A stretch of DNA of 47,601 bases from a virus: the IMG/VR virus record IMGVR_UViG_3300025326_000063. The stretch is one strand, 5' to 3'. The notes under the pieces are model-generated. The model made no database searches. It was not told where the DNA came from and saw only the letters and a list, made by a program, of their open reading frames with translations. Shown here piece by piece: positions 20,951 through 45,699 of the stretch. Every line of letters begins with the position of its first letter. Position 1 is the first letter of the stretch. The translations under genes and the position numbers were made by a program.

Positions 20951-20964
20951 ATGATGGCGGGTTA

Positions 20965-20998: not shown

Positions 20999-21012
20999 CC
21001 AGGGGGAACAAA

Positions 21013-21564: not shown

Positions 21565-21574
21565 AAGGGGAATA

Positions 21575-23315: not shown

Positions 23316-23318
23316 CGA

Positions 23319-24464: not shown

Positions 24465-24467
24465 AAA

Positions 24468-25127
24468 ATGAAAATGATGACGACGGCGGCAGTTGTGGAA
24501 CGGCTCAAAAAAACAAAAAACGTTGCTCGAATTGACGTCCGGTTTTTGCGCCTGCATAAATTGTATCGTCCCGTTACGTTCGGGTTGGCTTTAAGGGGAT
24601 TTCCGGAGTTGCAACTCCCTCATTACGCGGTGCACCAATGGGACTATGACATGGCCCGTTTCAACGTTTTTGAGCTAGGAATAAGGTCGTACACCAGACG
24701 TCTTAGGGATTGCCCTCATTGTGGAACGCTTTATTATGATACGGCGGCAAAAGACTATGACGTTCGGTTTGCGAATAACGTGAAAACGTGGCCTAATGAA
24801 ATACGCGAGATGTTAGAGTTGTCCATAAGTAATAAAACTCAGGTATCTAAGTACGGCGGAACTAATGGCCCATCGTGGACCATTAGATTGTGCCTTAAAA
24901 CAATTATACCAGAGATTGTTCAGGAAACGCTTTTGACGCTTGAACGGAAGAAGTATCCGTTTGTTGCCGTAGTTCAAGAAGCAGATTGGGCGGAAGCTAG
25001 AGTGGAGTTACGCGGTGATCCGTTATTGGTGGCCATGGATACGGAAGGCAATTTTTGGCTTTTGGCTGCTTTCCACTTATCGAATGGAGAACATTACGTT
25101 GCCTCAGAATTTACCGGAAAGGTTTGA
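24468..25127 (+). CDS. Hypothetical protein inside the glycan island
   Basis: 219-aa ORF, tightly packed between the amidotransferase and the radical-SAM gene. No motif recognised. Confidence 0.55.
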   Translation: MKMMTTAAVVERLKKTKNVARIDVRFLRLHKLYRPVTFGLALRGFPELQLPHYAVHQWDYDMARFNVFELGIRSYTRRLRDCPHCGTLYYDTAAKDYDVRFANNVKTWPNEIREMLELSISNKTQVSKYGGTNGPSWTIRLCLKTIIPEIVQETLLTLERKKYPFVAVVQEADWAEARVELRGDPLLVAMDTEGNFWLLAAFHLSNGEHYVASEFTGKV

Positions 25128-25133
25128 TGTAAG

Positions 25134-26045
25134 ATGAGAATGCCCATCGAAGCGTCGTGTATTCAAATCATTGTGAATAACGTCTGCGAGCACGATTGTT
25201 GCCACTGCTCACAGCTTATCGGCCATCAGGGTAATCATTACCAAATGACGCTGGACTATTGTGAGCAAGCGCTTGTTTCCTTGCAAGGCCATCCAGGGAG
25301 CGTCGGCTTCTTCGGGGGCAATTCGTTACTGCATCCGCAATTTCCCGAATTGTGCGAATTGCTGCGCAAGTATCGGCCAGTAAAGGCCCGCAGGGAACTA
25401 TGGTGCAGTGGAGCGAACTACGACAAATACAAAGAGATAATTGATGAGACTTTCTATCCTGAATTGGTGGCCTACAATGATCACAAAGACGGCCAGGACT
25501 GCTGGCATCAGCCGGTGTTGATAGCGCCTAATGAGGTTTTTGAAGATAAGGAATTGATGTGGCGGGTGATAGACAATTGCTGGGTGAACCTTAGATGGTC
25601 TGCCGCCGTTACTCCGCTTGGCGCCTTTTTCTGCGAGATAGCCTCGGCGATAGCGTGGCTGCTGAAAGAGAGTATTGGCATACCCGTTAAGCCGGGCTGG
25701 TGGCGGGAAGAGGAAAGTGATTGGTACTTTCAGCGAGGAACTATTTGCCCCTTATGCTCCGCCTGCCTGCCTATGCCGATGGTGGCCAACGATAAACAGG
25801 ACTACGACGATATATCGGCGGGTAACTTGGATAGGATTATCGGTGTTTCGCCGAGATGTATTAAGGGTAAGTACAAGATTTTCAATACGGACAATCTTAG
25901 GGACTATTACAAGGGCCACACCTTCGAGCCGGAGACCGAATTCGAGAAGCGGGGCTGGTTCAAAGACTTTCCATTTTGGAAACCGAACAGATATAGAAAT
26001 GTGGTGCGCCATTCGCCCGATGATAAAGACAATTCCAAAGACTAA
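25134..26045 (+). CDS. Radical-SAM-like protein
   Basis: NNVCEHDCCHC matches CX3CX2C. FFGGNSLLHP resembles GGEPLLHP. Confidence 0.55.
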   Translation: MRMPIEASCIQIIVNNVCEHDCCHCSQLIGHQGNHYQMTLDYCEQALVSLQGHPGSVGFFGGNSLLHPQFPELCELLRKYRPVKARRELWCSGANYDKYKEIIDETFYPELVAYNDHKDGQDCWHQPVLIAPNEVFEDKELMWRVIDNCWVNLRWSAAVTPLGAFFCEIASAIAWLLKESIGIPVKPGWWREEESDWYFQRGTICPLCSACLPMPMVANDKQDYDDISAGNLDRIIGVSPRCIKGKYKIFNTDNLRDYYKGHTFEPETEFEKRGWFKDFPFWKPNRYRNVVRHSPDDKDNSKD

Positions 26046-26202
26046 GATATGTAAGGGATGTTACAGAAATTTACCTTTACAAAAGTTTTCTAAGCAAAAG
26101 AGTGGAAAGTATGGGTATCACTCTCGGTGTAAGGAATGTATAAGTGAAGAAAACTGCATATATAAACAGAGACCAGAGGTAAGAGAAAGAATAGAGAGGT
26201 AG
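26020..26202 (+). CDS. Stand-alone zinc-ribbon module homologous to the N-termini of the Endo VII/HNH genes (homing-endonuclease remnant?)
   Basis: MIKTIPKTKICKGCYRNLPLQKFSKQKSGKYGYHSRCKECISEEN. This is the last 60 codons of track ORF 25675-26202. Confidence 0.5.
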   Translation: MIKTIPKTKICKGCYRNLPLQKFSKQKSGKYGYHSRCKECISEENCIYKQRPEVRERIER

Positions 26203-26208
26203 TGAAGC

Positions 26209-26394
26209 ATGCGCCGCAAACCGAAACAAAGTGATTCTCGTTTAGCCGCTTACGACGCCGAATTTCGGGCGGCGACGAATATGGCTCTCGATTACTGGTC
26301 GTTCATGGCCGCCCCCGAACAGGTGGATGAGCGACGAAAAGCGATGGAAACAAGAGAGTTGGCGAGGTTAAAAAACTGCTTTGAGACCACATAG
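26209..26394 (+). CDS. Small hypothetical protein, paralog A
   Basis: Ends ...AMETRELARLKNCFETT, sharing a 59-bp identical 3' end with the next ORF. Confidence 0.4.
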   Translation: MRRKPKQSDSRLAAYDAEFRAATNMALDYWSFMAAPEQVDERRKAMETRELARLKNCFETT

Positions 26395-26629
26395 AAAATG
26401 GCCGGACAATGACGTGTAAAGAAACTGCGAAACAATGCTTGGCGGACGCCACATGGCCGCCCCCGAACAGGTTGCCGATGCAAATTTATTACAGGGGCGT
26501 TCCTATCGAGGAATTTGATAAAGAAGACCTTATTAAAATTGTTGCCTTATGCCTGGAGCAATTAAAGTGCATGGAAACAAGAGAGTTGGCGAGGTTAAAA
26601 AACTGCTTTGAGACCACATAGAAAATGGC
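26344..26629 (+). repeat. Pair of 59-bp perfect direct repeats (26344-26402 and 26571-26629), plus a 20-bp repeat
   Basis: ATGGAAACAAGAGAGTTGGCGAGGTTAAAAAACTGCTTTGAGACCACATAGAAAATGGC occurs twice, 227 bp apart. ATGGCCGCCCCCGAACAGGT also occurs twice (about 26304 and 26454). Confidence 0.9.
26409..26621 (+). CDS. Small hypothetical protein, paralog B
   Basis: Ends ...CMETRELARLKNCFETT. Confidence 0.4.
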   Translation: MTCKETAKQCLADATWPPPNRLPMQIYYRGVPIEEFDKEDLIKIVALCLEQLKCMETRELARLKNCFETT

Positions 26630-27507
26630 ATCTTGTAATTCTTGACCGACTAATCACTGCGTTCCTCTTTTGTTGGTACAGTGTTGCGGACAAGGTGCGC
26701 CTGCGCCTTGCCCGCAGGCATTATGAATATCAATACTACCCGGAGAACGCACCGAAACATTTTAAGGCGACTCCGCTTGTCTCTATTATAATGCCCACGA
26801 TAGGACGGAACGCGACTGAGGCGATAGATTCCGTTCTTGCGCAGACTCATAAGAATTGGGAATTGATAATTGTGGGCGACGGCGCGCCACCGTATCCGGC
26901 GTCTAATATCGGCGACGGTAGGATTAAATGGTATTGGATCGAAAAGGTTCGTCACTACCCCGACCATCCGTTTTATCAATGGCTTTCCGGGCCGTGTAGG
27001 GCGATAAACTACGGGCTATCCAGGTTGCGGGGGGATTGGATAGCCCGAATTGACGACGACGATGTCTGGCATCCGAGACATCTTGAATGGGCGCTGGAAG
27101 CGGCGACTAAATATGATTATGAGTTCGTATCGTTTCCCATTGACTTAAATGGCCGACAGCCAATACCGGACGTTCATTGCGGGCAAGCCGTTGGCGCAGT
27201 TCAGTCGTGGCTGTATCGCGGTTATCTGAGATACTTTGAGACGAATCTTCATTGCTGGCGCAAAAGGCGGAACGCGGTGAACGATATAGACCTTTCGGAG
27301 CGAATGGCGCGGGCCGGTGTGAAAATAACGTTTATTTGCGGGTCTGACACGGAGTCGCACGCGATTATTAAGCCGAGACTGGGCCTAACGGAAGTAGGAA
27401 TTAAGGGATGGTTGCAAGAGGGAGAGCAAAATGCGCGGGGGCAAGAGTTTTCTGGCGGTGATACCGGCCAGGGGCGGCAGCAAGGGAATCCCGAACAAGA
27501 ACGTTAA
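26608..27507 (+). CDS. Family-2 glycosyltransferase with a hydrophobic N-terminal segment
   Basis: VSIIMPTIGRN..AIDSVLAQTHKNWELIIVGDG. ARIDDDDVWHPRHLE is the DxD motif. The start is uncertain (TTG 26608 or GTG 26695). Confidence 0.8.
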   Translation: MRPHRKWHLVILDRLITAFLFCWYSVADKVRLRLARRHYEYQYYPENAPKHFKATPLVSIIMPTIGRNATEAIDSVLAQTHKNWELIIVGDGAPPYPASNIGDGRIKWYWIEKVRHYPDHPFYQWLSGPCRAINYGLSRLRGDWIARIDDDDVWHPRHLEWALEAATKYDYEFVSFPIDLNGRQPIPDVHCGQAVGAVQSWLYRGYLRYFETNLHCWRKRRNAVNDIDLSERMARAGVKITFICGSDTESHAIIKPRLGLTEVGIKGWLQEGEQNARGQEFSGGDTGQGRQQGNPEQER

Positions 27508-28204
27508 GGACTTTTGCGGCAAGCCGCTAATTCAGTGGTCTATCGAGGCCGCAAAAGATAGCGGCGTATTCGACCGGATAATAGTCAACAGTGATTCCGA
27601 TAAGATACTGGCCGTGGCCGCTAAGTGCGGCGCGGACGTTCAGCCGCGACCTGCTGAATTGGCTTCGGACACGTCGCTGGTGGCGGACGTTATGGTGAAT
27701 TCACTGCTTAGGCTCGGCGAAAAGTATGATTACGTTCAGTTGATTCAGGCTACGAGTCCTGGGCTAAGACCCGCACAGATACAGGGTGCGGCGAGAATGA
27801 TTCAGGGCCAGCCGCCGTTTGAGAATTGGAAAGATAGAAACGCCGATATGGTTGTCGGGGTTCACAAGTATAAAGACCCGACGATAGTAGTCAAGGAGCT
27901 GCCGAATGATTTATGTTTGAAGGGTTGGTATCCTAAGCAGTTTAAGGACAAGAACAGGCAGGACTTACCGCCCGCGTACCGGATAAACGGGTACATCTAC
28001 CTTGCCAAGTGGGATGTCTGGGTGAACCGCAAAGACTATTGGAAAACGAACGTTTACGCCTATATCTGTGATGAGCACGATGATATTGACATTGATACCA
28101 AATGGGATTGGGACGTTGCCGAGGCCCGATTCCGGGCGGCGGGCAAACATAGACTTTCGAGGTGGGAAATATGCAAAAGATTGCTAAAGAGGCTGGCAAG
28201 TTAA
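27431..28204 (+). CDS. neuA: CMP-nonulosonic acid synthetase (acylneuraminate cytidylyltransferase; NeuA/LegF/PseF family)
   Basis: LAVIPARGGSKGIPNKN...GKPLIQWSIEAA...LIQATSPGLR. Confidence 0.85.
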   Translation: MRGGKSFLAVIPARGGSKGIPNKNVKDFCGKPLIQWSIEAAKDSGVFDRIIVNSDSDKILAVAAKCGADVQPRPAELASDTSLVADVMVNSLLRLGEKYDYVQLIQATSPGLRPAQIQGAARMIQGQPPFENWKDRNADMVVGVHKYKDPTIVVKELPNDLCLKGWYPKQFKDKNRQDLPPAYRINGYIYLAKWDVWVNRKDYWKTNVYAYICDEHDDIDIDTKWDWDVAEARFRAAGKHRLSRWEICKRLLKRLAS

Positions 28205-29145
28205 GCAGTTTTGCCGGCATTTATCGCAAGTGCAATTCCGGCACAATGGCGGACAAGCTGGCGAATCCAATAGACTTCCCTCGCCTGATAGATATTGAAT
28301 TGACTAATCAGTGTAATCTTCATTGTGCTATGTGCCCGACTGGGCAGGGCATAGTCAAGAGGCCGAAAGGATTGATGTCCGCCAATTTGTTTGGGTTGAT
28401 TCTCAAGGAGGCTGCCAAGTACGGTGCGGCTTTGCGGTTTGTTCGGTGGGGGGAGCCATTCATACATCCGCAGTGCCTGGCCTTCTGTAAACTGGCGCGG
28501 CAAGTGAACGTGCCCGTCTGGATAAATACCAACGGGACGCTAATCGACGACGAGGCCATTGACCGGATAATCCACTTGAGATACGGCCCATCGACTATCA
28601 AGTTTTCCTTTCAGGGTGTTACTGCTGAGCAGTACAAAAAGTGGCGAGGAGAGGATAATTTCGAGAAGTTGTTTGAGACTGTCGGTGAAATATACAAAAA
28701 AAGGGGAGCGTTCAGGATGCCGTTCATACAGATAGGGAGTACGATAACCGATGAAAGTACAGCAAATGAAGTGGCGGAGTTTCGGCATTTTGCTGAAAAA
28801 ATCGCCGACAAAGTTGAAATTAGCCGAACAAAGAAAATTGGATTCGACCCTTGCTCGATGGCGGAAAACTGTCCTGAAATCTTTGATAAAATGTCTATCA
28901 ACTGGGACGGGACGGTAGTTGCCTGCTGTGCGGACTATGATAACGAGATGGTGGTCGGTGATTTGGCCAAGAGCAGTCTCAAGAATATCTGGGATTTCGG
29001 CCCGGAGTTAAGGGAAATACGAGCCGATTTAGCGGCTGGCCGGTGGAATAAGTATAGGCTATGCGGAGGGAACTGTTATGATGCGGGGAATAGTAAGGCC
29101 GACGAAGGCCAGGCTAAAGGCGTTTTTCAGTCAAGCGCAAAATGA
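28171..29145 (+). CDS. Radical-SAM enzyme with a SPASM/twitch-like C-terminal Cys cluster
   Basis: ELTNQCNLHCAMCPTG matches CX3CX2C. C-terminus has CPEIF...DGTVVACCADYD...LCGGNC. Confidence 0.75.
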   Translation: MQKIAKEAGKLSSFAGIYRKCNSGTMADKLANPIDFPRLIDIELTNQCNLHCAMCPTGQGIVKRPKGLMSANLFGLILKEAAKYGAALRFVRWGEPFIHPQCLAFCKLARQVNVPVWINTNGTLIDDEAIDRIIHLRYGPSTIKFSFQGVTAEQYKKWRGEDNFEKLFETVGEIYKKRGAFRMPFIQIGSTITDESTANEVAEFRHFAEKIADKVEISRTKKIGFDPCSMAENCPEIFDKMSINWDGTVVACCADYDNEMVVGDLAKSSLKNIWDFGPELREIRADLAAGRWNKYRLCGGNCYDAGNSKADEGQAKGVFQSSAK

Positions 29146-29675: not shown

Positions 29676-30405
29676 TGCGGCTGCGCAGTTAATTTTTGCC
29701 GCGTCTTTCTCCGGTGCGGACTGCGTGAAGTTCCAGCTTTACAGCGAGGAGACCGCGAATAAGGTCGGCGGCCGTTTGCCCGCGTGCCGGTTGGACGTGG
29801 GGCAGTTTGAATATCTCAGAAAGTACACGGCCAAGTGTAATGGTATTGAATTTCTCTTATCTGCTTTTGATATGGAGAGTCTAAAACAGTGCAAACTATT
29901 GGGTTGTAAAGCCGTGAAGATACCATCCGTCTGCAACGAGAATTGGGATATGCTGCAATATGCGGATGACCATTTTGACGTCATATACGTCTCGTCGGGC
30001 TTGGCGGGGCTTATTGGCGTTCCAGCCAAGTGCCTAACCTTGCTTTGCACCTCTGTCTATCCCTGCCCGTTTGAGCAGGTGAATTTAAGGGCGATAACGA
30101 ACTATGACGGCCTTTCCGATCATACGATAGGCTGGGAAGTGCCCATAGCGGCGGTTGCCATGGGCGCGATGATTATCGAAAAACACTTGACAATATCTCG
30201 TAGCACCGACGGCCCGGACGCCTGCTGCGCCCTTGAGCCGATGGAATTTGCCGATATGGTCTATCGTATCAGAAACGTCGAAAAGGCTATGGGCGACGGT
30301 ATTAAGAAAATCGAGCCAGGGGAGATGGGATTACTCTGGCGGAAACAACTGGGGTGCACGAGACTTGAAGATGAGGAGTATGCCGAATGGCGAAAATCAC
30401 TTTAG
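29623..30405 (+). CDS. neuB: Nonulosonic acid synthase (NeuB/LegI/PseI family), TIM-barrel domain only
   Basis: MSAYIIAEAGLEANG...GADCVKFQ...GLSDHTIGWEVPIAAVAMGAMIIEKHLT. 260 aa, with no C-terminal SAF domain. Confidence 0.8.
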   Translation: MSAYIIAEAGLEANGSTSAAAQLIFAASFSGADCVKFQLYSEETANKVGGRLPACRLDVGQFEYLRKYTAKCNGIEFLLSAFDMESLKQCKLLGCKAVKIPSVCNENWDMLQYADDHFDVIYVSSGLAGLIGVPAKCLTLLCTSVYPCPFEQVNLRAITNYDGLSDHTIGWEVPIAAVAMGAMIIEKHLTISRSTDGPDACCALEPMEFADMVYRIRNVEKAMGDGIKKIEPGEMGLLWRKQLGCTRLEDEEYAEWRKSL

Positions 30406-31364
30406 TGGCAGGTAGTCGTTCCGACTACGGACTCTTAGAGCCGCTTTTGGAATGGTTGCAAGACCATAATTGCGGCGGGGGGGATACGAACACCCTAATT
30501 CAGCTTTTCGGAGCTTCTACGGCCTCTGGGTGGCCTTCTCGATGCTTCCGGGGGGCAAGTCTAAGGGTTGTGGAATGTTTCACGGATTCCGATAGTCCTG
30601 AAGGGGTCTGCGCCTCTATGGGACTGGTTTGTATGAAACTGCCACAGATATTGAAAGAAGGCGCTTATGAAAAAGTTATCGTTCTGGGCGACCGTTATGA
30701 AATACTTAGTGTGGCTTGTTGTGCTTATACTCTTGGCATACCTATTTCTCATATCGAGGGCAGCGATACGACTTTAGGCTCGCTGGACAACGGATACCGA
30801 GCGGCCATAAGGTCTTTGGCCGCCGAGCATTACGACGTGGAGGAATACGGGTCTTTGGGTTGTGTATTCCCGCCCGACGGCAATGGCCAACACTATCCGG
30901 CTCTGGTTGTGTTGATTTATCATTCGCACAAAGGCGACTGGGAAAGCGAATTGCGGGCTATTCTTGATGCTGTTAAACCTTATCGAACAGCAGCTTTTGG
31001 GTCGAATAAAGATGCAGACGGCAGAAAAATAAATCGGATTCTTAAAGAAAATGGAATTATTCCTCTTGACAATCTACCGCGTATGCAATATATTAACATA
31101 CTCAGAGACGCGGATTTCATTATCGGCAACAGCAGCAGTGGAATCATAGAAAGTGCTTCTCTTCACATTCCCGCTATAAATGTTGGGGATAGACAAAAAG
31201 GCAGAATGAGAGCCAAAAGCGTTATCCAAGCCGACGGAAGTGTGGAGAGTATTAAGCAAGCGATAGAAAAAATCAAAGACTTGCAAGACTTTGATTTTGA
31301 GAATCCGTATTTTAGACCTAATATTGTGGAGCGCATAGGCAAAGGGATTCTGGGTTATGCCTGA
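30387..31364 (+). CDS. neuC: UDP-N-acetylhexosamine 2-epimerase, hydrolysing type (NeuC/LegG family)
   Basis: KITLVAGSRSDYGLLEPLL...VLGDRYEILSVA...PISHIEGSDTT.G..D...R. Confidence 0.75.
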   Translation: MAKITLVAGSRSDYGLLEPLLEWLQDHNCGGGDTNTLIQLFGASTASGWPSRCFRGASLRVVECFTDSDSPEGVCASMGLVCMKLPQILKEGAYEKVIVLGDRYEILSVACCAYTLGIPISHIEGSDTTLGSLDNGYRAAIRSLAAEHYDVEEYGSLGCVFPPDGNGQHYPALVVLIYHSHKGDWESELRAILDAVKPYRTAAFGSNKDADGRKINRILKENGIIPLDNLPRMQYINILRDADFIIGNSSSGIIESASLHIPAINVGDRQKGRMRAKSVIQADGSVESIKQAIEKIKDLQDFDFENPYFRPNIVERIGKGILGYA

Positions 31365-31711: not shown

Positions 31712-32458
31712 ATGCCAAGTTTGCAACTTTCATTTTCGGAGCTTTACAACGCCGTTTCAAAGTACGCCGGCACGTATGGCTCGTCCGGCGTATCCGGTAC
31801 GGACCTTACCGACGCTAAGGATATGGTAAACGCGGCGTACCGAAGACTTCTTCTTAGCCATAATTGGACTTTCTTAACGCCTACCCGCCAGATTTCGACG
31901 GTGTCCGGCACGTGGCAATATGAGTTGCCCGCCGACTTTGTACGGATAAAGAGCACGTTCAGGTACTCGTCCGCCGACGCCTACCCGCCCCTGCGGGAGC
32001 GAATGTATGAGCAGATAGAGGAGTTTCGCGCCGTTACCGATACTACGGGTTATCCGACTTATTTTGCTCTTGTTGCAGGCGAGCACGCGTCCGAAACGGG
32101 TCAGAAATGGATAGTTACGTTCTTTCCTACTCCTGATGCCGCTTATACCCTTTACTATTCTCCTGAGATTTGGCCCGCAAAGATGGTGAACGACAGTGAT
32201 TTGCACATCGGCGGCCCGGACGTTTCGGAGGCTTTGAAAGAATTGGCAATCGCTCAGGCCGAAGCCGAATTGGACGAGCTTGCGCCTGACCAGTCCGTTC
32301 ACGAGAAGAAGGCCAGTGGCCTGCTTATGCAGGCGGTAATGAAGGACAACGAGCGGAGGGCGCATAATTTAGGCTATAACAACGACGAGAATATGGGCGG
32401 GGTAATTGATATAACTCGCGAATACAGGTTAAATGAAGTGAATATGGTTGACTTCTAA
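31712..32458 (+). CDS. Virion structural protein (head-tail adaptor/connector candidate)
   Basis: 248-aa ORF, the first gene after the island, with GGAGAGAAAA upstream. The call rests on position only. Confidence 0.45.
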   Translation: MPSLQLSFSELYNAVSKYAGTYGSSGVSGTDLTDAKDMVNAAYRRLLLSHNWTFLTPTRQISTVSGTWQYELPADFVRIKSTFRYSSADAYPPLRERMYEQIEEFRAVTDTTGYPTYFALVAGEHASETGQKWIVTFFPTPDAAYTLYYSPEIWPAKMVNDSDLHIGGPDVSEALKELAIAQAEAELDELAPDQSVHEKKASGLLMQAVMKDNERRAHNLGYNNDENMGGVIDITREYRLNEVNMVDF

Positions 32459-33824: not shown

Positions 33825-35978
33825 ATGACAATTACTGCCATATCATATACCAGCACGGTAGCGGGAATCACGGCAACTCAGACAACCTGGGGGTCTGGGG
33901 GCTATTATGGGATGTCCTTCACACCCTTGTTCCCGGCAATGATTTCGTCTTTTGCGTTTCAGTTGCAAAGAAGCGCAAATGCCGAAGGCGATTTGCGAAT
34001 TGATTTATGGTCGGCGATAGTATCAACGGGCTTGCCGGACGCTTTATTGGACTCGTCTTTTAATTCGGCTTATGTTAGTGGACTGCCGACGAGCCAGACT
34101 TTGGCTTATCAACCTTTTGCGTTTGCTACGGGTGTGCAACTTGCGGGGAATACTAAGTATGTAGCGACTGTGATTGCTTCATCGGTAGGCGCAGGCGAAG
34201 AGTTATTAGCGGGGATAGCGGGAAATTCCACTTATGATTACGGCGGCTCTGTTTATGCCGTTACTTCAAGCGGTACTTTTCTGGCCAATAGTAATATCGA
34301 CTATTTCTTCGAGTTATGGGCTGCTACTATCGGCTCGAATACTTTTACAAACAATTATCCCGACGACCGCAAGAGAAGCGCGAAGCTCGTCGCCGCAGCG
34401 AATAGCAGTATCTATCTGGAATCGCCTGCGGGAACGATGGCTGAAATTACAGTTTCGCGGGGCGCTATTGATATAAACCTTCCTATTGACCTTATTGGCG
34501 CTTACCAGAAGGTTTTCGTAGTCAATGGCGATAATCAGAAGATAATCGACTTCGTTAATACTCGATGCTATACAACTGCGTTAGGAGCGAATCCGCCCGA
34601 TGTTGGCAATGCTTTAACCGGCGGAACGAGCGGGGCGGCGATTGTCGTTGATTACGCGACGGATATAGGCGCTACGACCTCTCGGATTTACGGAGTCCCG
34701 CAGAATACGGCGGTCTTTACGGACGGAGAGACGATAACCGGCACAGACGACGACGGCAATGCAATATCGTTTGTACTCAATTCTGCGCTGGCCGCTACGA
34801 GCGTTCCTCACTTTTATGATTGGACTGTTTACGGGGCGAGCGCGACTTTCGGGACTTTTCCCACGAAGCCGACGCTTGGCTGTTTGTACCGGGGACGGAT
34901 GGTCTTAGCGGGTACGCCTTACGACCCGCACCAGTGGTATATGAGCAGGCAGGGCAATCCCTTCGACTGGAATTACGTCTCCGCCGATTCTCAGAGTCCC
35001 ATTGCGGGCAATGACGCCGACGTGGGTAAGGTAGGCGATATTATTCTGGCTTTGATTCCCCGCAAGGACGATTTCCTTATTGTTGGTTGCGCTAATTCTA
35101 TGTGGGTTATTCGGGGCGATCCCGCCGAAGGCGGCTCGCTTGACCCGATAACTCTATCAACGGGTATTTTTGGGCCTAAGAGTTTCTGCTGGGACGCTGA
35201 GGATAATATCTATTGGTTCGGTTCGGGCGGGATATACAAACTCTCCACCGGCGGCGAGGATTGGGGCACGGTCGAAAACCTTACCGCTAAGAGTATTCCC
35301 AAACTGATAGACGACGAGACTATCGACCCTACTCAGCACAGAATTACAATGGGCTACGACCGTATTCGGCACGGAATCTTAGTCTGCATTACTAAGGTTG
35401 TGGACAACACCAATTCCGCTTACTGGCTCGACTTGCGCACGGGCGGGATATTTCCTGAGTCCTATCCGGCAAACTGCGCCCCGATTAGTATGATGTTCTA
35501 TAACGCGGACGACGATGCTTACCGGAAATTATTGTTCGGGTGTGCGGACGGGTATATTCGCTCTTTCGACGATACTGCTAAAGTCGATGACGACGGTGCG
35601 ACGGACGCGGCGATTAGCGCCTACGTTACGTTAGGCCCGATGCCTATGAACCAAGACCCTGAACTTGAAGGTAGGATGATCGGCGGGTTCGTTACCCTTG
35701 CCGGCGGCGCTTCCGGCGGGGCATTTGACGATACCGACGGCTGCCAGTTGAATTTTTATCGCGGTAACGACGCGGAGACTGTTCTTGAAGATATTAAGGA
35801 CGGGGCAACGGCTTTCAATTCAGTAGCTTTTACGGGCACGGGCCGCAAGACGAAGATAAATACTAAGGTTAGAGGCAATTACATAGCAATTAAGGCTCAG
35901 ACAATCGCGTCGAATCAGACGTGGAGTTTTGAAAAATTCGTAGCTAACGTTAAGCCCGTTAAGGGCAGAGTAGAATAA
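33825..35978 (+). CDS. Large tail structural protein (tail tubular-B / nozzle-like body with an inserted beta-sandwich domain)
   Basis: 717 aa. CLYRGRMVLAGTPYDPHQWYMSRQGNPFDWNY and MWVIRGDP..GSLDPIT are typical of podovirus tail-hub proteins, by memory of the pattern. Confidence 0.55.
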   Translation: MTITAISYTSTVAGITATQTTWGSGGYYGMSFTPLFPAMISSFAFQLQRSANAEGDLRIDLWSAIVSTGLPDALLDSSFNSAYVSGLPTSQTLAYQPFAFATGVQLAGNTKYVATVIASSVGAGEELLAGIAGNSTYDYGGSVYAVTSSGTFLANSNIDYFFELWAATIGSNTFTNNYPDDRKRSAKLVAAANSSIYLESPAGTMAEITVSRGAIDINLPIDLIGAYQKVFVVNGDNQKIIDFVNTRCYTTALGANPPDVGNALTGGTSGAAIVVDYATDIGATTSRIYGVPQNTAVFTDGETITGTDDDGNAISFVLNSALAATSVPHFYDWTVYGASATFGTFPTKPTLGCLYRGRMVLAGTPYDPHQWYMSRQGNPFDWNYVSADSQSPIAGNDADVGKVGDIILALIPRKDDFLIVGCANSMWVIRGDPAEGGSLDPITLSTGIFGPKSFCWDAEDNIYWFGSGGIYKLSTGGEDWGTVENLTAKSIPKLIDDETIDPTQHRITMGYDRIRHGILVCITKVVDNTNSAYWLDLRTGGIFPESYPANCAPISMMFYNADDDAYRKLLFGCADGYIRSFDDTAKVDDDGATDAAISAYVTLGPMPMNQDPELEGRMIGGFVTLAGGASGGAFDDTDGCQLNFYRGNDAETVLEDIKDGATAFNSVAFTGTGRKTKINTKVRGNYIAIKAQTIASNQTWSFEKFVANVKPVKGRVE

Positions 35979-37606: not shown

Positions 37607-38731
37607 ATGCCGACAATAATAGCATCTTTAACCGCCGGAGACGATGCCCCGGCATTTGTTTACAATAGCAGTTGGATAGGCGTAATGTTCCGGTCGCAAG
37701 GACATTATTCTTTAGCCTCGGCGCAATTACTTTGCACCCGCACACCGGGTTTATCCACCCTGAATTTCAACATCTACAATTGCACTTCCGCAGGGCCAAC
37801 CGGCACGGCCATTGCCGCTATTACGGTAGATGCTTCCGGTTGGGTAACCAGTCAGGCCTGGCAATCTTTTAATTTTGGAAATTCTGCCGTTTTAGATAGC
37901 GGTAGTTTGTATGGTTGTATTTGTGAAACTACGTCAACCAGCAGCGCAACTCCATTAGCTTGGCGGAATGAAACGGTAAATATAACCGAACACAAGAATA
38001 TAAGAAGCACGAATTACGGGTCTTCGTGGATCATATTAAGTGATAGTTGTTTATTATTTACCGTTTTCGGCAGTGGTGTAACTTATTATCCGACAGGCAA
38101 TATATCCGGTGTGTCTTATCTTAGCGCGTTTCCTCCGAGACTCGATGAGTATATGACGGGAGCGGTTTCTGCTGCTTCTTTCGTATCTGCTGCTGCGCCG
38201 GTAATAACTCGATATTGTAGTGGTACATTATTGGGCACTTCTTTCATTAGTGCTGATTCGCCCAGAGCTGATATGTATATTACGGGGGCAATATCCGGCA
38301 TTTCTTATGTTAGCGCTTATTCGCCAGGAGTTCAAAGATATTTTTCGGGTAACATTACCGGACAGGGGGTAATTTCATCTCTTGTTTTTGTAGTAACTCG
38401 ATACCTGACCGGCGATACCATTTATGGTGTTGGGTATTTGTCGGAAGTGGAAGCAGCTGGCGTAATTCATTATTTGACTGGAACAATTTCAGGTATTGCT
38501 TACATTTCCGTTTGGCTTAACAAGCAGGCGAACCAAATAAACATAGTAAGTAACATCTCCGCCGCTCCGCACCATACGAGGGACGGCAGCGACGGGCTGT
38601 TGGTAAAGGGCGGCGTGGAATCGCAGGGCGGGTACTTCACCGACGATGGCGTGGGCCAGACTATCACGTTCACCGCCCAGGATGGACGCACGGTAACGGT
38701 AAGTAGAGGCATAATAATTGCAATAAGCTGA
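37607..38731 (+). CDS. Tail fibre / receptor-binding protein with seven 21-aa tandem repeats
   Basis: 374 aa. The N-terminal domain is homologous to the insert in 33825-35978. The repeats are listed as a separate feature. Confidence 0.55.
   Translation: MPTIIASLTAGDDAPAFVYNSSWIGVMFRSQGHYSLASAQLLCTRTPGLSTLNFNIYNCTSAGPTGTAIAAITVDASGWVTSQAWQSFNFGNSAVLDSGSLYGCICETTSTSSATPLAWRNETVNITEHKNIRSTNYGSSWIILSDSCLLFTVFGSGVTYYPTGNISGVSYLSAFPPRLDEYMTGAVSAASFVSAAAPVITRYCSGTLLGTSFISADSPRADMYITGAISGISYVSAYSPGVQRYFSGNITGQGVISSLVFVVTRYLTGDTIYGVGYLSEVEAAGVIHYLTGTISGIAYISVWLNKQANQINIVSNISAAPHHTRDGSDGLLVKGGVESQGGYFTDDGVGQTITFTAQDGRTVTVSRGIIIAIS
38087..38533 (+). repeat. Seven in-frame ~63-bp (21-aa) repeats, Y-x-[TS]-G-x-[ILV]-S-G-x-S-[YF]-[ILV]-S-A...
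   Basis: YPTGNISGVSYLSAFPPRLDE / YMTGAVSAASFVSAAAPVITR / YCSGTLLGTSFISADSPRADM / YITGAISGISYVSAYSPGVQR / YFSGNITGQGVISSLVFVVTR / YLTGDTIYGVGYLSEVEAAGVIH / YLTGTISGIAYISVWLNKQAN. Confidence 0.85.
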
Positions 38732-39894: not shown

Positions 39895-42800
39895 ATGCCC
39901 GCAACACTCGATGAATTGATAGCCAAATATCAACAAGCCCCCACCGAGTCGTCGGAAGAGACGCCATTATCTCTCGATGATCTTATCAGTGAAAGAAAAG
40001 GCTTTGTCTCGGATTTGCAACCGCGCCCCAATATGCTTCAAGCGATGGCGGGAGAACGCCAGGCTATTGAGGAGCAGAAAAGGGAAGTGGCGGCGGAGCC
40101 GCTTGGAGTACCTTATGCCTACAGCCAGCCGGAGTTATTCGCTGATCCGAGCGGGTTCGACATACCGCCGCCGAAACGAAGCGGACAGACTCAATTCCTT
40201 GCCGACATCAACTGGATGGAGCATCAGGCTAATCTACCCCCTGAATTGAAGAAAAATGCCATTGACGCCCGCACCCTTCAGCGTCAGAAGGAGCGGACTG
40301 GAGAATTGGTTGACGAAATTCAGGGCCGCTATGATATGGAAGTCTATCAAGCGGAACTCGAAAAGCAGACGGGCAAATTCTGGACGAAAACGGGAAAAAG
40401 ATGGGAGCGGGGCAAGCTCCAGTTGGCGGGCGGACTTGCCCACCTTGCCGGAGACGTGTCGCGGGCGGCAAGCGGCGGGAAATACGGCAAGTCGGCGGAC
40501 GATTGGGCGAGAATGTTCTGGGACGTTCAGCAGAAGGCCCCCGAATATGCGGCCCTGGAAGAGACCCTGGTGGATAGATACTTCGGCAGTGCCGTTGAAA
40601 CCGCCCCATTTATGTTGGCGGCGATGGCCCCTGCTGCTATGACGGGCGGGGCGACCTTGCCTTCGGCGCTTGGCAGCTTTCTCGTTTCTTACGGGGTAGA
40701 AGGAAATACGGCGTATCAAACCGCCCTCGATAGAGGAGCAAGTGAACGAGAGGCCCGGATTCGCGGCGCAGTCGTTGGAATGATAAATGGCGGGATAGAA
40801 ATAGCCGGGGGCGGGGGCGGCAAGTATTTTAAGAATAGGGCAATCGCCGCCACGCTTACCAAGATGCAGAAGGCAAAGCAATTCGGCAGGCACGCCCTCA
40901 CAAACGCCCTAAAAGAAGGTCTGGCTGAGGAGTTGCCTCAAGAACTTGTGCAGATAGTTGCGGGCGGCGATGTGCCCCAAAAGGCCGATGGTTCGGTCGA
41001 TTATGATGCCGTGGCAAAGCGTCTCGCTGATTCAGCCGTTATGGGAACGATGCTGGGCGGGATTATGGACCCCTCTATCACCGGCGCGAAGTTGCTGGCG
41101 AACTATCGACGCAAGGCAGGCCCCGCAACCGATGTCGCACAGCCGCAACCAGGCACGATGAAGGACTTGGCCGGCGAGATAAACCAGGCAAACTACGAGC
41201 GGATGCAATACGACCTACTCTTGGAGCGGGCGAGCGAAGGCGAACAGGACGCCATCGACAAACTAAACGCCATCCAACAGCAAGGCGCGGCGTTGCCTAC
41301 CTATGAAGACCTGCTTGACCGAATAAGCCAGGGGGACCTCTCGGCAGCCCAGGAAATCCAAGAGGGGCGATACTCCAGGGGAGCGGCGAAAACCCAAAAG
41401 GCCGGGCCGCCGCCTATCGGCCAAACGTTGAGGCAAGAGGGCGTCCCAGGCGCAGAGGCCGCCAGAATCAGTCCGGCGACGGCTCAGGAGCGCGCCGGCA
41501 TAGCGAAAAAACGCACCAGGATTGCGCAGGAGCCTCGAACTCCCCCGGAACCGGGCCAGGGTAGGGTTACGGCCAAGATTGCGCCCCCTACACCCGTAAA
41601 GCCTACTCCTATTAAACTTGCCCCTGAACAGCAGGAAGCGATACGGCGGCATAATCAAGCCATATCAGAATGGATTAAGGGCGGCAAAAAAGGCCCAAGC
41701 CCTACAACCGTTAGCCAGGCAACAACCCCTCAGATTCCCGTAGAAAGCAAATCATTTAACAACTGGTTACAACAGCAAGGCGTGCGCAACCGAGCCGCTA
41801 TTGACGAATATCTGCGTACTCAGGACATAGATAAAGCCGTTGGCGAATATAGGGACGCCACATCAGGACTTTATGGCGGCGATAAACAATCGAGACACGC
41901 TACTGAATTGATTATCGAACACGCAAAGAGCCGCCCAGATTGGCCATTGAAAGCAACTGCCAAGCCCGCCCCGACCGTAACTACCCCCCAGGGCGAGACA
42001 GTAGCCCGACCCGCCCCGTCCCCAGGGGATAAAGCTGCGAAGAAGGTGGAACCATCCGATGAAGGAATAACATCAAAGGCGTATAAAACAGTTTCGGATG
42101 TTCTTGCAAACAAAAATATAACCGACGACACGCTAACATTCTATCCGCTCCGCAGAATCATACGAGAGGCTTACGGGATAGAAATAGGTATGCCCGATAT
42201 TCTGACTCAAGAAAATATCGACTCTGCCCTTGGAAACGAAAACGAAACCAAAAAGAAACTTGCAACGGCATTATTCCGGCATTTGGCAGAGCAAGAAGGT
42301 GTGGATGCTGAGGGTATAATAGGGCCATTATCTGCTTTAACGCAGCAAGGCAAAATTAAAGCGCTGGAAGAGACTGCACTTCTCGCCGAACAAATCCACG
42401 AAAACGTCAAGAAAAAAATAGGTGGGCAATCTCTTATACAGAAGCCCGCTCCGTCCCCAGGGGATAAAGCTGCGAAGAAGGTGTTGTATCACGTTACTCT
42501 AACTTCAAGGGTCAAAGATATTCAACAGGAAGGCATCATAGCGGGAAAACAAAAAGCAACCTACAAGGGCCAATTTGGAAAGAAATTGGTACAGCCTGGC
42601 ACGATTTATACCTTTGAAAACTATGACGATGCTGTTCGTTGGGCAGCAAAGATGGAATATGATGTGGGTGAAAATACCAGTATTGTTAGAATCAATTCGA
42701 CCGGAGTGCAATTAGAACAAGATGTCAATGCTCAAATACAAATGGGGCGTGGAAAAGCATACAAATCAAAGGCGATTTCTGCCGATAAAATCATAGATGT

Positions 42801-45699
42801 AATACCCTTGACGCCTGAAATGACGCAGGCAGTAGTTCAAACGCTTGGGGAAAAAGAGGGATTGATATATTCGCCGAAGCCCGCCCCGTTCCCAGGGGAT
42901 AAAACTGCGGGGAAGGTAGAAGTATGGCAAATCCTCAATAGTCGCGGAAATCAAGTCGGGAAAACTACCTATTCGTCGCGCGAAGCCGCGCGGAAAGCCT
43001 TAGAGAAAAAAATCACGTCATCAGCAGGCCGGACGCAATTTTCAGTAGAGCAAGTTAAGCCCGCCCCTGCGCCAGAGGGGAAGGAGATAACACCGGACGA
43101 AAAGACCGTCATAACCAATAGCGAATCGGAGCAAGACCTTAAAAACCAGGCCGATAATCCTGAATTGCCCTATAATCACAATAAGGGTATGGTCATAATC
43201 CCGCCCCAAGTTGAGGAGGTGCTGGATTCACTTACAAGAGTGAAAGACGTTGCCAAAGGACTGCCGGGCGCGGTTCGGTACGCAATATACGGCGCGGCGG
43301 ATTACGTCGAGAAACAGTACAAGATACCGGAAGGCGAGCAGCTTGCCCGAAGCATAAGGAGTATAGCCAGGAACGCCGATACCAGAGAGGCTACGCAGCT
43401 TCGCAGAATCAATAAGGACGCCGGTCTTAAAAAGCTGACTAAAGCTCAGAAGATTCTCCTCGTAAAAGAGGCACAAGGTCGGATTTCCCGCTCCAAAGTG
43501 CCCGAAAAGGTTATGCGAATCTCGGACGCCGTCCGACTTATTTACGACGAGGATATAGACGTTGCAAACAAGGCCGGTATCAAACGTAAAGTGGGCGGCA
43601 CTTACAAAACGCTTACCAGAACAAGTAGGTGGATGGGCCAAATACCCAACCAGAAGGGTAGGCACATCCTGTATTGGGCGCGCCAAAAGGGGCTGGGCCA
43701 TCCCCAGGTGGCGAAAGCGGCGGAAGATATGGTCGGAATGGGTTCGGCCAAAGACACTCAAGACGCCCTCGATAAAATGATAAAGCATCGGGAAATGTCC
43801 CACGTGAATGGAGCACTGAGGGGCGTTGACGGCAACCTCGAAAGTACAAGGGTATTACTGCCTGATTATATGGTCGAGTTCGATCCTGATATTATTCTGC
43901 CCAAGATACTTGGCACAAACGCCAAGATGATAGCCGCCGCCCAGGAGTGGGGCGTTCTTTACGAAGGCCAGCCGCCAACCTCCGGCGTACTATTCGGTAG
44001 TGAGCAGGAAATTGCGGCGGCGGAGCATCAAGGGCCGTTCAACTTTGATAGAGTCTGGCCGCTACTGGGCGCTATAAAGACTAAGTACGGCTCCGGCGAT
44101 GCAAAGTCCGTCGAAAATTGGATAAGTACGACTTTTGGCCAGTCCAACGCTATTCCAAGCGGCGTGGAAATGGCCCTCGATTACCTAAGCAACGGACTAA
44201 CGCGGCTAAAACTGAGCGGCGCAACCATCTCCGCCATACGCAACGGCTTTCAGGGATTTGGAAATACCTTTATGGTCTCGCCAAGCGACAGTCTGCGCTC
44301 CTTTTTACACGCTCTTGAAATTACAAAGGAAGGCAAGCGGATTTCAGAAATAGTCCGCCAGTCGGGCGCAATGTCGCACGCGAAAGAACTCGGCGAATTA
44401 TTGGGCGGTAAAGACTTGCCCAAAGGAATGATTCCGTTTTTGGGCGCGGAGCATTGGAGTCAGAAAACGGCGGGCATTAGCGGTATTGTCCGGTTCAAGA
44501 CCAACGTCCAGCGACTTGCCGCACTGCGCAAAGGCAGTACATTAGACAAGATACTCGTCCACTTGAAGCTATTATCCGTTAGACCGGAAGCGTACTTGAC
44601 GGACTTATTGAAGAATAGAACGCTCGTAAATCCCATTACAGACGAGCAGTTGAACGAGTTTGTGCGCGGCAGAGCGCCTACTCTTGACGAAGTTCAGCAG
44701 TTTGCCTATAGGCTTGTTACCGACACCCAATTCCCAATGACTCTGGCGACCAGGCCGATTCCTTACGGCAATCCGGTGTTTCGCGTAGCTACCAAGTTCA
44801 AGTATTACGCCGTGAACCAGACCCGTTTAGTCTGGCGAGAAGCGATTTTACAGGCTCTGAAGGGCACGTTGGCCCCGCTATTGCAGTTTTTAATACGCAG
44901 TGCCCTGATCGGCGAGCTATGGAATCTGCTCAGAGACCTTGTTCGGGGCGGGGATAACTCTATCACTATGCAAATGATAACCAGAGAGGAAAAGCGCAAC
45001 GCAAAAGACTTGACACTGGCGGTAGGCAACGATATTTTAGACGGTACGGGCATTGGCATTATTGGTGATTTAGGCTATGGAATAGGAACAACTATCGGTG
45101 GCGTAGTCGTAGGTACCGGACGAAACACAGCCAGTTGGCTGGCGGAGTCATTTGCGGGACATCCGGCAACGGCCACAAGGAAACTGGCTCGGCGGGAAGT
45201 GGTAATGCTCAAAGATGTTTCCGGCCTAATGAATCGGGCCGATGCCTGGTTCATAAACGGTAATAACAAGTATTTTGAGTATCAGCGCCTACGGGACAGG
45301 TCTTTTGATTTTCAAGACAAGAACAAAAAGACGCCCATGGGCGGCAAAATCAGCCAATACCTTCGCAAGGTCTTGCTAGGCCGGCCTTCGTACCCGTCCA
45401 TTCTGCCCTACGAATACGCGGCACGGCAGGTAACGGTGGGCGATATTAGCGACGCGGCAAACTACTTGGCCGAACATATTAAAGACAACCCGGAAAAGAA
45501 GCGCAGCGAATTAAGGACTTCCATTGAAAGGTCGCGTAACCAGTACGCCCCGTTTGCCGGTCTCGCCGATAAGGACGTGGATAAGTTCTTAGCCCAGTTC
45601 GATCTCAAAACGCGAAGAGCGGCCAGGGAATTGCAAAGAAAATGGCTTGCCGACTATCGAAAGGCGACGAATCTTGCGTTTGAAAGAGCGGAGAAATAG
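39895..45699 (+). CDS. Giant modular virion protein (internal/ejected polyvalent-type protein candidate)
   Basis: 1934 aa. Hydrophobic Gly-rich segments (FMLAAMAPAAMTGGATLP; GGIEIAGGGGGKYF; GIGIIGDLGYGIGTTIGGVVVG). A Pro/Ala/Lys linker region with repeated KPAPSPGDKAAKKV. It is the last large gene of the late operon. Confidence 0.6.
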   Translation: MPATLDELIAKYQQAPTESSEETPLSLDDLISERKGFVSDLQPRPNMLQAMAGERQAIEEQKREVAAEPLGVPYAYSQPELFADPSGFDIPPPKRSGQTQFLADINWMEHQANLPPELKKNAIDARTLQRQKERTGELVDEIQGRYDMEVYQAELEKQTGKFWTKTGKRWERGKLQLAGGLAHLAGDVSRAASGGKYGKSADDWARMFWDVQQKAPEYAALEETLVDRYFGSAVETAPFMLAAMAPAAMTGGATLPSALGSFLVSYGVEGNTAYQTALDRGASEREARIRGAVVGMINGGIEIAGGGGGKYFKNRAIAATLTKMQKAKQFGRHALTNALKEGLAEELPQELVQIVAGGDVPQKADGSVDYDAVAKRLADSAVMGTMLGGIMDPSITGAKLLANYRRKAGPATDVAQPQPGTMKDLAGEINQANYERMQYDLLLERASEGEQDAIDKLNAIQQQGAALPTYEDLLDRISQGDLSAAQEIQEGRYSRGAAKTQKAGPPPIGQTLRQEGVPGAEAARISPATAQERAGIAKKRTRIAQEPRTPPEPGQGRVTAKIAPPTPVKPTPIKLAPEQQEAIRRHNQAISEWIKGGKKGPSPTTVSQATTPQIPVESKSFNNWLQQQGVRNRAAIDEYLRTQDIDKAVGEYRDATSGLYGGDKQSRHATELIIEHAKSRPDWPLKATAKPAPTVTTPQGETVARPAPSPGDKAAKKVEPSDEGITSKAYKTVSDVLANKNITDDTLTFYPLRRIIREAYGIEIGMPDILTQENIDSALGNENETKKKLATALFRHLAEQEGVDAEGIIGPLSALTQQGKIKALEETALLAEQIHENVKKKIGGQSLIQKPAPSPGDKAAKKVLYHVTLTSRVKDIQQEGIIAGKQKATYKGQFGKKLVQPGTIYTFENYDDAVRWAAKMEYDVGENTSIVRINSTGVQLEQDVNAQIQMGRGKAYKSKAISADKIIDVIPLTPEMTQAVVQTLGEKEGLIYSPKPAPFPGDKTAGKVEVWQILNSRGNQVGKTTYSSREAARKALEKKITSSAGRTQFSVEQVKPAPAPEGKEITPDEKTVITNSESEQDLKNQADNPELPYNHNKGMVIIPPQVEEVLDSLTRVKDVAKGLPGAVRYAIYGAADYVEKQYKIPEGEQLARSIRSIARNADTREATQLRRINKDAGLKKLTKAQKILLVKEAQGRISRSKVPEKVMRISDAVRLIYDEDIDVANKAGIKRKVGGTYKTLTRTSRWMGQIPNQKGRHILYWARQKGLGHPQVAKAAEDMVGMGSAKDTQDALDKMIKHREMSHVNGALRGVDGNLESTRVLLPDYMVEFDPDIILPKILGTNAKMIAAAQEWGVLYEGQPPTSGVLFGSEQEIAAAEHQGPFNFDRVWPLLGAIKTKYGSGDAKSVENWISTTFGQSNAIPSGVEMALDYLSNGLTRLKLSGATISAIRNGFQGFGNTFMVSPSDSLRSFLHALEITKEGKRISEIVRQSGAMSHAKELGELLGGKDLPKGMIPFLGAEHWSQKTAGISGIVRFKTNVQRLAALRKGSTLDKILVHLKLLSVRPEAYLTDLLKNRTLVNPITDEQLNEFVRGRAPTLDEVQQFAYRLVTDTQFPMTLATRPIPYGNPVFRVATKFKYYAVNQTRLVWREAILQALKGTLAPLLQFLIRSALIGELWNLLRDLVRGGDNSITMQMITREEKRNAKDLTLAVGNDILDGTGIGIIGDLGYGIGTTIGGVVVGTGRNTASWLAESFAGHPATATRKLARREVVMLKDVSGLMNRADAWFINGNNKYFEYQRLRDRSFDFQDKNKKTPMGGKISQYLRKVLLGRPSYPSILPYEYAARQVTVGDISDAANYLAEHIKDNPEKKRSELRTSIERSRNQYAPFAGLADKDVDKFLAQFDLKTRRAARELQRKWLADYRKATNLAFERAEK
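42011..42918 (+). repeat. Three copies of a ~38-bp linker-coding repeat at an exact 435-bp period
   Basis: CCGCCCCGTCCCCAGGGGATAAAGCTGCGAAGAAGGTG at 42011. Second copy at 42446, sharing a 33-bp perfect core (42016-42048 = 42451-42483). Diverged third copy at 42881. Confidence 0.9.

Follow-up and report, generated by a model that had tools for sequence, protein, structure and literature searches.

A candidate polyvalent effector protein of an uncultured phage with a predicted ADP-ribosyltransferase-fold module between near-identical linkers

INTRODUCTION

In the virus record IMGVR_UViG_3300025326_000063 of IMG/VR, a giant open reading frame (ORF) encodes a protein of 1934 amino acids (aa) in which near-identical linkers separate segments that do not resemble each other. 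The whole stretch of DNA analyzed, 47,601 nucleotides (nt), is referred to here as the window. The locus raises the question of what kind of protein is built in this way and what part the linkers played in its assembly. The giant protein was found to consist of at least five mutually unrelated segments (translation, blastp, and Foldseek), one of which, module M2, has an ADP-ribosyltransferase (ART) fold according to its structural model. On the evidence below it is fairly probable that the giant ORF encodes a phage polyvalent effector protein with a helical carrier, cargo modules, and recombining linkers.

RESULTS

An ART-fold module in the giant protein

The giant ORF and its parts are listed below, with GC3 denoting the G+C content at third codon positions.

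39895 to 45699, + strand: giant ORF, 1934 aa (ORF list and translation); proposed virion-associated polyvalent effector protein.
39895 to 41484, + strand: conserved N-terminal region, aa 1 to 530 (core about aa 100 to 400), predicted to be all-helical, Gly/Ala-rich; presumed anchoring or delivery part.
41485 to 41961, + strand: Pro-rich stretch and small orphan segment, aa 531 to 689, before the first KPAP junction (translation); without family or PDB match.
41962 to 41976, + strand: weak linker copy L0, KPAPT (repeat search), followed by TVTTPQGETVA.
42007 to 42048, + strand: linker L1, RPAPSPGDKAAKKV (repeat search).
42049 to 42441, + strand: module M1, aa 719 to 849, orphan without detectable homologues; GC3 0.386.
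42442 to 42483, + strand: linker L2, KPAPSPGDKAAKKV; 38 of 39 nt the same as in L1, the sole difference being synonymous.
42484 to 42876, + strand: module M2, aa 864 to 994, predicted ART-fold domain with H-Y-D triad; GC3 0.379.
42490 to 42492, 42607 to 42609, and 42721 to 42723, + strand: codons of the M2 triad, H866, Y905, and D943.
42877 to 42918, + strand: linker L3, KPAPFPGDKTAGKV; 87% identical to L1.
42919 to 43056, + strand: mini-module M3, aa 1009 to 1054, orphan (translation; only sub-threshold noise in Pfam).
43057 to 43086, + strand: linker L4, KPAPAPEGKE; a near-identical linker occurs in the related contig L003.
43087 to 45699, + strand: C-terminal part of about 870 aa without detectable relatives, absent even from the closest N-terminal relatives.

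An AlphaFold2 (AF2) model of M2, built from 43 sequences, reached a predicted local distance difference test score (pLDDT) of 86.8 and a predicted template modeling score (pTM) of 0.79. Foldseek comparison of M2 with the PDB placed Tpt1/KptA and DarT1 at ranks 1 to 17, followed by NarE, PltA, Arr, typhoid toxin, heat-labile enterotoxin (LT), and cholera toxin (CT). All matches with a probability of at least 0.98 were ART-fold proteins (Tpt1/KptA and DarT1). The top match, Tpt1/KptA, had an E value of 2.9e-4, a probability of 1.0, and a query-normalized TM score (TMq) of about 0.5. Among viral structures in BFVD, the named matches to M2 were DarT, RNA 2'-phosphotransferase, rifampin ART, and PARP. 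A relationship was also seen at the sequence level: a profile of 43 family members (alignment A1) matched KptA among the PDB sequences (E = 6e-4), with the M2 segment LYHVT..I..EGL.P lying on the LYHGT motif. A weak single-sequence match to the PHROG family "RNA 2'-phosphotransferase" was found as well (E = 0.034).

When 1.84 billion cluster representatives were searched exhaustively with HMMER, 225 proved related to M2 at an E value of at most 1e-3, so that the family comprises at least 225 clusters at 50% identity. Its members are either stand-alone proteins of about 130 to 150 aa or modules within proteins of up to 2737 aa. In 148 aligned domains, H866 was conserved in 146, G880 in all 148, and D943 in 145, while the position of Y905 was occupied by Tyr in 112 and by Phe in 32; A913 and W916 were near-invariant too. 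In the AF2 model, the His lies in the strand at residues 2 to 6 and the Tyr in the strand at residues 41 to 44. E941 was poorly conserved (61 of 148), and the family-invariant acid is D943 of the sequence LEQD. Because D943 is near-invariant and E941 is not, the triad of M2 is read as H-Y-D. By its modeled fold and its conserved residues, M2 is an ART-fold domain with such a triad. An earlier reading made from the DNA sequence alone (the sequence-only reading) had tentatively assigned M2 to the H-Y-E class of ARTs. The fold stood up to the Foldseek check, which returned almost only ART-fold proteins, and to the profile alignment on LYHGT; the acid did not, since D943 makes the triad H-Y-D and not H-Y-E.

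Comparison with curated families did not yield a name for M2. Neither M2 (aa 864 to 995) nor its family members gave a significant match to any model in Pfam, NCBIfam, or PHROG, and a cluster look-up of the family returned no informative names. PLSDB plasmids contained no match to M2, and a search of GTDB genomes with the back-translated DAVRWAAKM pattern gave two chance matches only (a HisF gene and a spurious frame). The M2 hidden Markov model (HMM) also matched the second domain of protein P0072 (FHGT...SIYVA), on which the Pfam PARP model scores above threshold, with the His and the Tyr aligned. Assignment of M2 itself to PARP (PF00644) was not adopted: the model reached 2 of 43 family members, below threshold (best E = 0.0043), and the acid of M2 is Asp, not Glu. 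The Tpt1 model (PF01885) matched one of the 43 members at an E value of 0.23, and NCBIfam KptA scored 12.6 bits against a cut-off of 231. M2 as a Tpt1 enzyme was rejected, the module being a counterpart of the NAD+ lobe only. Membership in the Pfam family ART-PolyVal, for which the sequence-only reading had suggested a profile comparison, was likewise rejected, as the model matched neither M2 nor its 43 relatives. M2 is best regarded as belonging to the H-Y-[ED] ARTs, in which it forms a family not described before.

The genomic company of the M2 family was inspected. Some giant proteins with M2-family domains also carry ART-PolyVal, GNAT, or MuF domains, and stand-alone M2-family genes neighbor RelA_SpoT, T7-kinase-like, MT-A70, and ART-PolyVal genes. 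This company fits a host-directed effector. Another repeated junction motif, W(D/E)ExKHPRxxxGSxxGGEFxxKG or (D/N)PxEPRxKxGxW, was found at both borders of the M2-like domains in five other giant proteins (P0146, P0111, P0110, P0072, and P0109). Framing of this ART module by repeated junction peptides may thus be more widespread, with sequences that differ between lineages.

Near-identical linker repeats

The repeat search revealed a 39-nt direct repeat at 42010 to 42048, 42445 to 42483, and 42880 to 42918, with start-to-start distances of 435 and 435 bp. Relative to copy 1, copy 2 is 97% identical and copy 3 87%, and all three lie in frame in the giant ORF. The encoded peptide is (K/R)PAPSPGDKAAKKV in two copies and KPAPFPGDKTAGKV in one. 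The 33-nt perfect core shared by L1 and L2 is the longest exact repeat in the ORF, compared with 10 to 15 nt for the longest repeat in 200 codon shuffles. The DNA identity of L1 and L2 covers synonymous sites and stops abruptly at both edges. A 30-nt degenerate pattern allowing up to 3 mismatches was found at exactly 3 sites in the window and at none in 100 shuffles. The weaker AAGCCCGCCCC copies at 41962 and 43057 were recovered by the repeat search as real, and the sequence ARCCCGCYCC had 5 matches against 0.61 expected. On the protein level, [KR]PAP occurred five times in the giant ORF and was absent from the other credible ORFs of the window, head proteins included. The linker variants of the window and of its relatives all keep P-A-P, then an acidic residue, and then Lys (PGDK, PEGK, AAEK, and VAEK). 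No similarity between M1 and M2 was detected by blastp at an E value of up to 10.

What the sequence-only reading had observed at the linkers was thus reproduced: three copies 435 bp apart with a 33-bp core (repeat search and shuffles), weaker copies near 41962 and 43057 (repeat search and ARCCCGCYCC excess), unrelated sequence in between, and the quoted peptide strings, which were correct by translation. A significance of the exact 145-codon period, which it had pointed out, was not supported by comparison with relatives, in which the linkers are spaced 136 aa (P0017) or 143 aa (P0001) apart and most of which have no repeated linker. A functional meaning of the period was therefore rejected, and it is probably a coincidence of two domain-sized modules.

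Some further properties of the linkers were noted. Each strong copy holds a short palindrome, CCCCAGGGG (42020 to 42030, 42455 to 42465, and 42890 to 42900). The linker occurs nowhere else in the window in inverted orientation, which makes an invertase-type switch unlikely. The linker DNA pattern had 2 matches in IMG/VR, and the one inspected (contig L001) was a chance match in an AT-rich context. Within 41962 to 42048, a KPAP and an RPAP junction lie 15 codons apart with only TVTTPQGETVA between them, a peptide resembling the pre-linker sequence QAPQGEIAA of the related contig L004. This double junction may mark where the carrier region natively ends, or it may be a cassette slot that has been emptied.

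Evidence for cassette exchange at the linkers

Codon composition set M1 and M2 apart from the rest of the ORF. GC3 was 0.386 in M1 and 0.379 in M2; the N-terminal part has 0.625 and the C-terminal part 0.585. Pooled, M1 and M2 have a GC3 of 0.383 and the remainder of the ORF one of 0.588 (Fisher p = 8e-10). Both modules are among the lowest few percent of the phage's 132-codon windows by GC3. No homologue of M1 was found in a word-index search of 5.8 billion proteins, in Pfam, in PHROGs, or in the PDB, and a local phmmer search returned noise; none of the relatives of the giant protein carries M1 or M2.

Comparison of two related contigs, L003 (encoding protein P0001) and L004 (encoding P0017), revealed a module replacement. 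The contigs share 87% identity where the N-terminal region ends; downstream, they agree at 99.06% over 3299 nt, and the modules in between are unrelated. The replaced segment is bordered by a 43-nt linker, PPAPAAEKAVKQAP, conserved at 97.7% identity, and a second copy of this linker stands at the opposite end of the replaced segment in contig L004. In the window itself, 43053 to 43084 (linker L4) is identical to a linker of contig L003 at 30 of 32 nt, and the 3' coding flanks are unrelated (blastn). The coincidence of linker and breakpoint is seen between contigs L003 and L004 and between L4 and contig L003; at L1 to L3, where exchange is proposed, GC3 is discontinuous. The DNA identity of the linkers, the GC3 islands, and the replacement between contigs L003 and L004 favor an exchange of cassettes at the linkers rather than simple low-complexity sequence, as read from sequence comparison. 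The earlier proposal of exchange by homologous recombination was in this way strengthened. Because the repeats are in phase, deletion, duplication, or replacement of modules would preserve the frame.

The related contigs are themselves mosaic. Contig L009 is 98.6% identical to L003 overall, and its last 256 nt (1958 to 2213) are 100% identical to L004, in a stretch where L003 and L004 are only 87% alike (L003 2476 to 3110 compared with L004 514 to 968). This pattern therefore indicates a further breakpoint inside the N-terminal region.

The conserved N-terminal region and its relatives

A total of 17 relatives of 1080 to 1780 aa were found among 5.8 billion proteins, together with 16 loci in a metagenome scan. 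All of them aligned to aa 40 to 530 of the giant protein, approximately, and to no other part (blastp). The relatives have in common an N-terminus of about 400 to 530 aa, behind which other cargo follows, such as Radical SAM, SAM lyase/DUF3293, and GemA-like domains; a comparison of module order, which the sequence-only reading had called for, accordingly gave a shared N-terminus with different cargo behind it. An M2-like module is carried by none of the 16 metagenome relatives. Alignment A2 of the N-terminal region has 33 invariant columns. The region had no match in Pfam, PHROG, or, by profile, the PDB, and its AF2 model is helical with low confidence (pLDDT 50.8). This N-terminal carrier domain is hitherto unannotated, and it presumably attaches the giant protein to the virion or to the apparatus for ejection.

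Searches with the remaining parts of the protein returned little. The giant ORF, its N-terminal part, its C-terminal part, and M2 had no match in 50,697 deposited phage genomes (blastn and tblastn), a related-locus search of IMG/VR with the whole giant protein found nothing, and nothing meaningful was obtained for the C-terminal region or aa 531 to 850 in the PDB. The giant protein contains no HExxH motif and no strongly hydrophobic segment. In the assembly collection, 80 blocks list the exact 1934-aa protein, for the most part on contigs of 20 to 50 kb. The uncultured phage is thus recurrent, and the window probably represents one of its contigs in full. Mini-module M3 (EVWQILNSRGNQVGKTTYSSREAARKALEKKI...), with 46 aa, is shorter than most domains require. 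We take it to resemble a single YegP/DUF1508-type beta-beta-alpha unit, a match that Pfam did not report.

Genomic setting and other features of the window

The window (about 47.6 kb) is a divergent phage genome, with a major head protein at 18816 to 19940 and tail proteins at 31712 to 32458 and 33825 to 35978. The giant ORF is the final gene of the structural (late) block: head and tail genes lie upstream of it, and replication genes, namely, DnaD-like and DnaA-like genes, follow directly downstream. The long relative contigs (about 46 kb) encode a PD-(D/E)XK nuclease, DNA polymerase A, and a D5-type primase-helicase, and in them, too, the late operon ends with the giant gene.

Two ORFs of the tail region, 37607 to 38731 and 30387 to 31364, have an unusually low GC3 (0.43 and 0.44 overall), and 132-codon windows around 37800 to 38170 go down to 0.30. 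As with M1 and M2, these ORFs may be segments exchanged in recent times, e.g., receptor-binding parts. A non-structural gene block at 20917 to 29145, between the head and tail genes, includes DNA methyltransferase-like (20917 to 21564), PAPS-reductase-like (23319 to 24464), glycosyltransferase-like (26608 to 27507), and radical SAM (28162 to 29145) genes and may be a DNA- or virion-modification cluster. A 154-aa ORF at 17262 to 17726, just upstream of the head genes, has a strong Endonuclease VII domain (PF02945; E = 1.9e-24).

DISCUSSION

The architecture of the giant protein points to a polyvalent protein because a constant N-terminal part and variable, unrelated modules are joined in a phage late operon. 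In the proposed model, the conserved helical N-terminal 400 to 530 aa or so would anchor the giant protein in the virion or in the ejection apparatus, in a family whose genes close the late operons of phages of about 46 to 48 kb. Behind this carrier, a string of small, independently folding cargo modules would be held on flexible [KR]PAPxPG[DE]K linkers, which, to judge from their composition, would serve as disordered spacers. M2, with a compact ART fold and an intact H866-Y905-D943 triad, would bind NAD+ and transfer ADP-ribose onto a host protein or nucleic acid. The near-identical, in-phase linker DNA would provide short homology for gaining, losing, and replacing modules, as the comparative data suggest, and M1 and M2 appear to have been imported recently from a source of lower GC. 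Gene position and analogy suggest that the giant protein is packaged in the virion or injected, and M2 may then ADP-ribosylate a host macromolecule early in infection.

Polyvalent proteins and their ARTs, which bear His in strand 1, Tyr in strand 2, and Asp in strand 5, were described by Iyer, Burroughs, Anand, de Souza & Aravind in 2017 (PMC5512222). Like these, the giant ORF encodes a very large phage protein of unrelated modules that include an H-Y-D ART fold, several unrelated domains being present in one phage polypeptide, and DNA-coupled delivery is predicted for both. The N-terminal domain of the giant ORF, however, is not MuF, N4 virion RNA polymerase, or a metallopeptidase, and only one of its modules has a recognizable fold. 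Near-identical repeated linkers are not among the features described for polyvalent proteins, and the word "linker" is absent from that paper (PMC5512222).

Among single enzymes, Tpt1/KptA (PDB entries 8tfi and 9ld4; PF01885) is the best structural match to M2, with LYH[GV]T...I..EGL.P at the start of the NAD+ lobe in both. Tpt1/KptA is two-lobed, whereas M2, with 131 aa between the linkers, corresponds to the C-terminal NAD+ lobe only. The N-terminal lobe of Tpt1/KptA carries the Arg-His-Arg-Arg residues that bind the RNA phosphate. DarT presumably has a first strand of the hYHhT type, similar to that of M2. This single-stranded DNA thymidine ADP-ribosyltransferase of the DarTG system (PDB entries 8baq and 7omu) has the ART fold and is among the top PDB and BFVD matches of M2. 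DarT is a toxin-antitoxin partner; M2, in contrast, lies inside a giant protein, without a sequence-model match and without an adjacent DarG-like Macro gene. T4 Alt, a head-packaged and injected ART, resembles M2 in the role proposed here, which would be genome-delivered modification of the host; Alt and the ART-bearing polyvalent proteins are thus its closest functional models. Alt belongs to the R-S-E clade (PMC5512222) and is a separate internal head protein, whereas M2 is of the H-Y-D type and a module of a giant protein.

Polymorphic toxins (Rhs/CDI and MuF-toxins) and mosaic phage genes combine conserved N-terminal delivery parts with variable effectors and short conserved borders. As in these cassette systems, short conserved border sequences coincide with breakpoints in the giant ORF family (contigs L003 and L004). 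Polymorphic toxins swap a single C-terminal tip, whereas the giant ORF strings several modules in series between repeated internal linkers, and no orphan cassette array was seen beside the giant gene.

Several observations weigh against the reading of the giant ORF as a polyvalent effector protein with an ART module and recombining linkers. The ART-PolyVal model of Pfam (PF18760; gathering threshold, 31.2 bits) matched neither M2 at an E value of up to 1 nor any of its 43 family members, and hhalign of the M2 family with an ART-PolyVal alignment of 4 sequences, too shallow to decide, gave a probability of 0.4%. The Pfam models of PARP, DarT, and Tpt1 remained below threshold on M2. The identical protein recurs in 80 assembly blocks, which indicates a repeat array that the population maintains stably; variants of this phage with a deletion or a replacement were not seen. 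Repeated linkers are missing from most relatives, and the likeness of the linkers could also be maintained by gene conversion within the gene or by selection on the peptide.

Gene conversion is part of an alternative account in which an ordinary spacer underwent intragenic concerted evolution, by conversion or unequal crossing-over, and had no role in module import; M1 and M2 would then be old residents whose low GC reflects constraints on amino acids or expression. With repeats 435 bp apart in one gene, conversion is mechanically easy, and this account agrees with the recurrence of the same protein in many assemblies and with the scarcity of repeated linkers among relatives. GC3, however, depends little on amino acid content, and its drop from 0.59 to 0.38 coincides exactly with M1 and M2, modules that occur in no relative. 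A true replacement at linker boundaries separates contigs L003 and L004, and one linker is common to phages with unrelated flanks, so that concerted evolution alone appears quite unlikely. That the linkers are sites for a phage or host protease, cutting a polyprotein in the capsid or after ejection into effectors that include a free ART of about 14 kDa, with the DNA likeness as a by-product, is an idea favored by the constancy of P-A-P, acidic residue, and Lys in all linker versions and by the existence of M2-family domains as free proteins of about 130 to 150 aa. Processing of polyvalent proteins has also been proposed, and P1 DdrB is processed (PMC5512222). Yet no peptidase domain was found in the giant protein (HExxH, Pfam, and PHROG) or in 30 other scanned ORFs of the window, many of them orphan, and [KR]PAP is missing from all other credible ORFs, the head proteins included. 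Conservation of the peptide would moreover leave the 38 of 39 nt identical, synonymous sites among them, and the breakpoints at linkers unexplained. We regard proteolytic processing as unlikely, and it is compatible with a polyvalent protein of exchangeable modules rather than exclusive of it.

A further alternative concerns the target of M2, which might act on nucleic acid or on NAD+ itself and not on a host protein, through modification of DNA or RNA ends or through depletion or binding of NAD+, in anti-defense or RNA repair. The closest structures, Tpt1/KptA and DarT1 in the PDB and DarT and KptA-like proteins in BFVD, speak for such a target, and the sole sequence-level link to solved structures is to KptA. 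M2 matches only the NAD+-binding C-lobe of Tpt1 (chain residues about 93 to 177) and lacks the N-terminal RNA-binding lobe, however; the TM scores are modest (0.5), and the H-Y-D ARTs of polyvalent proteins were grouped with protein-modifying clades (PMC5512222). An action of this kind is possible, if somewhat unlikely. As for chance, the linkers are biased to P, A, G, and K, and no curated model exceeds its threshold on M2, so the repeats might be low-complexity Pro/Ala sequence and the ART resemblance a coincidence of motifs. This extremely improbable explanation was rejected on the Foldseek results, the codon shuffles, and the pattern count: a 33-nt exact repeat compares with at most 15 nt in shuffles and 3 pattern sites with 0 expected, and the M2 family is large and conserved, with a confident model that matches ART folds almost exclusively.

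A bolder form of the preferred reading, that of a polyvalent effector protein with cassette exchange, can be stated. The [KR]PAP linkers would be dedicated in-frame recombination joints that make the giant virion protein an "effector rack" in which cargo from unrelated, lower-GC phages is plugged in, duplicated, or removed. M2 would represent a new clade of ARTs that are minimal and single-lobed and structurally resemble Tpt1 and DarT most, and it would modify host nucleic acid or counter NAD+-based defense and not modify RNA polymerase. In this full extent, the proposal is speculative and rather unlikely to hold.

That giant and presumably injected phage proteins contain ART domains is already an established prediction, so that the general idea is not new and an ART in such a protein will not surprise a specialist; the M2 family is still worth defining and assaying. 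It is new as an annotation target, covered by no model of Pfam, NCBIfam, or PHROG and with none of its members named, and the compact M2 module with its intact H-Y-D triad is suited to expression and assay. The locus, together with the pair of contigs L003 and L004, offers an unusually clean view of how a polyvalent protein is assembled, with in-phase linker DNA shared at breakpoints and a sharp step in GC3 where the modules begin and end. If the giant protein is indeed injected, M2 would be a candidate early host-takeover or anti-defense enzyme of an abundant uncultured phage.

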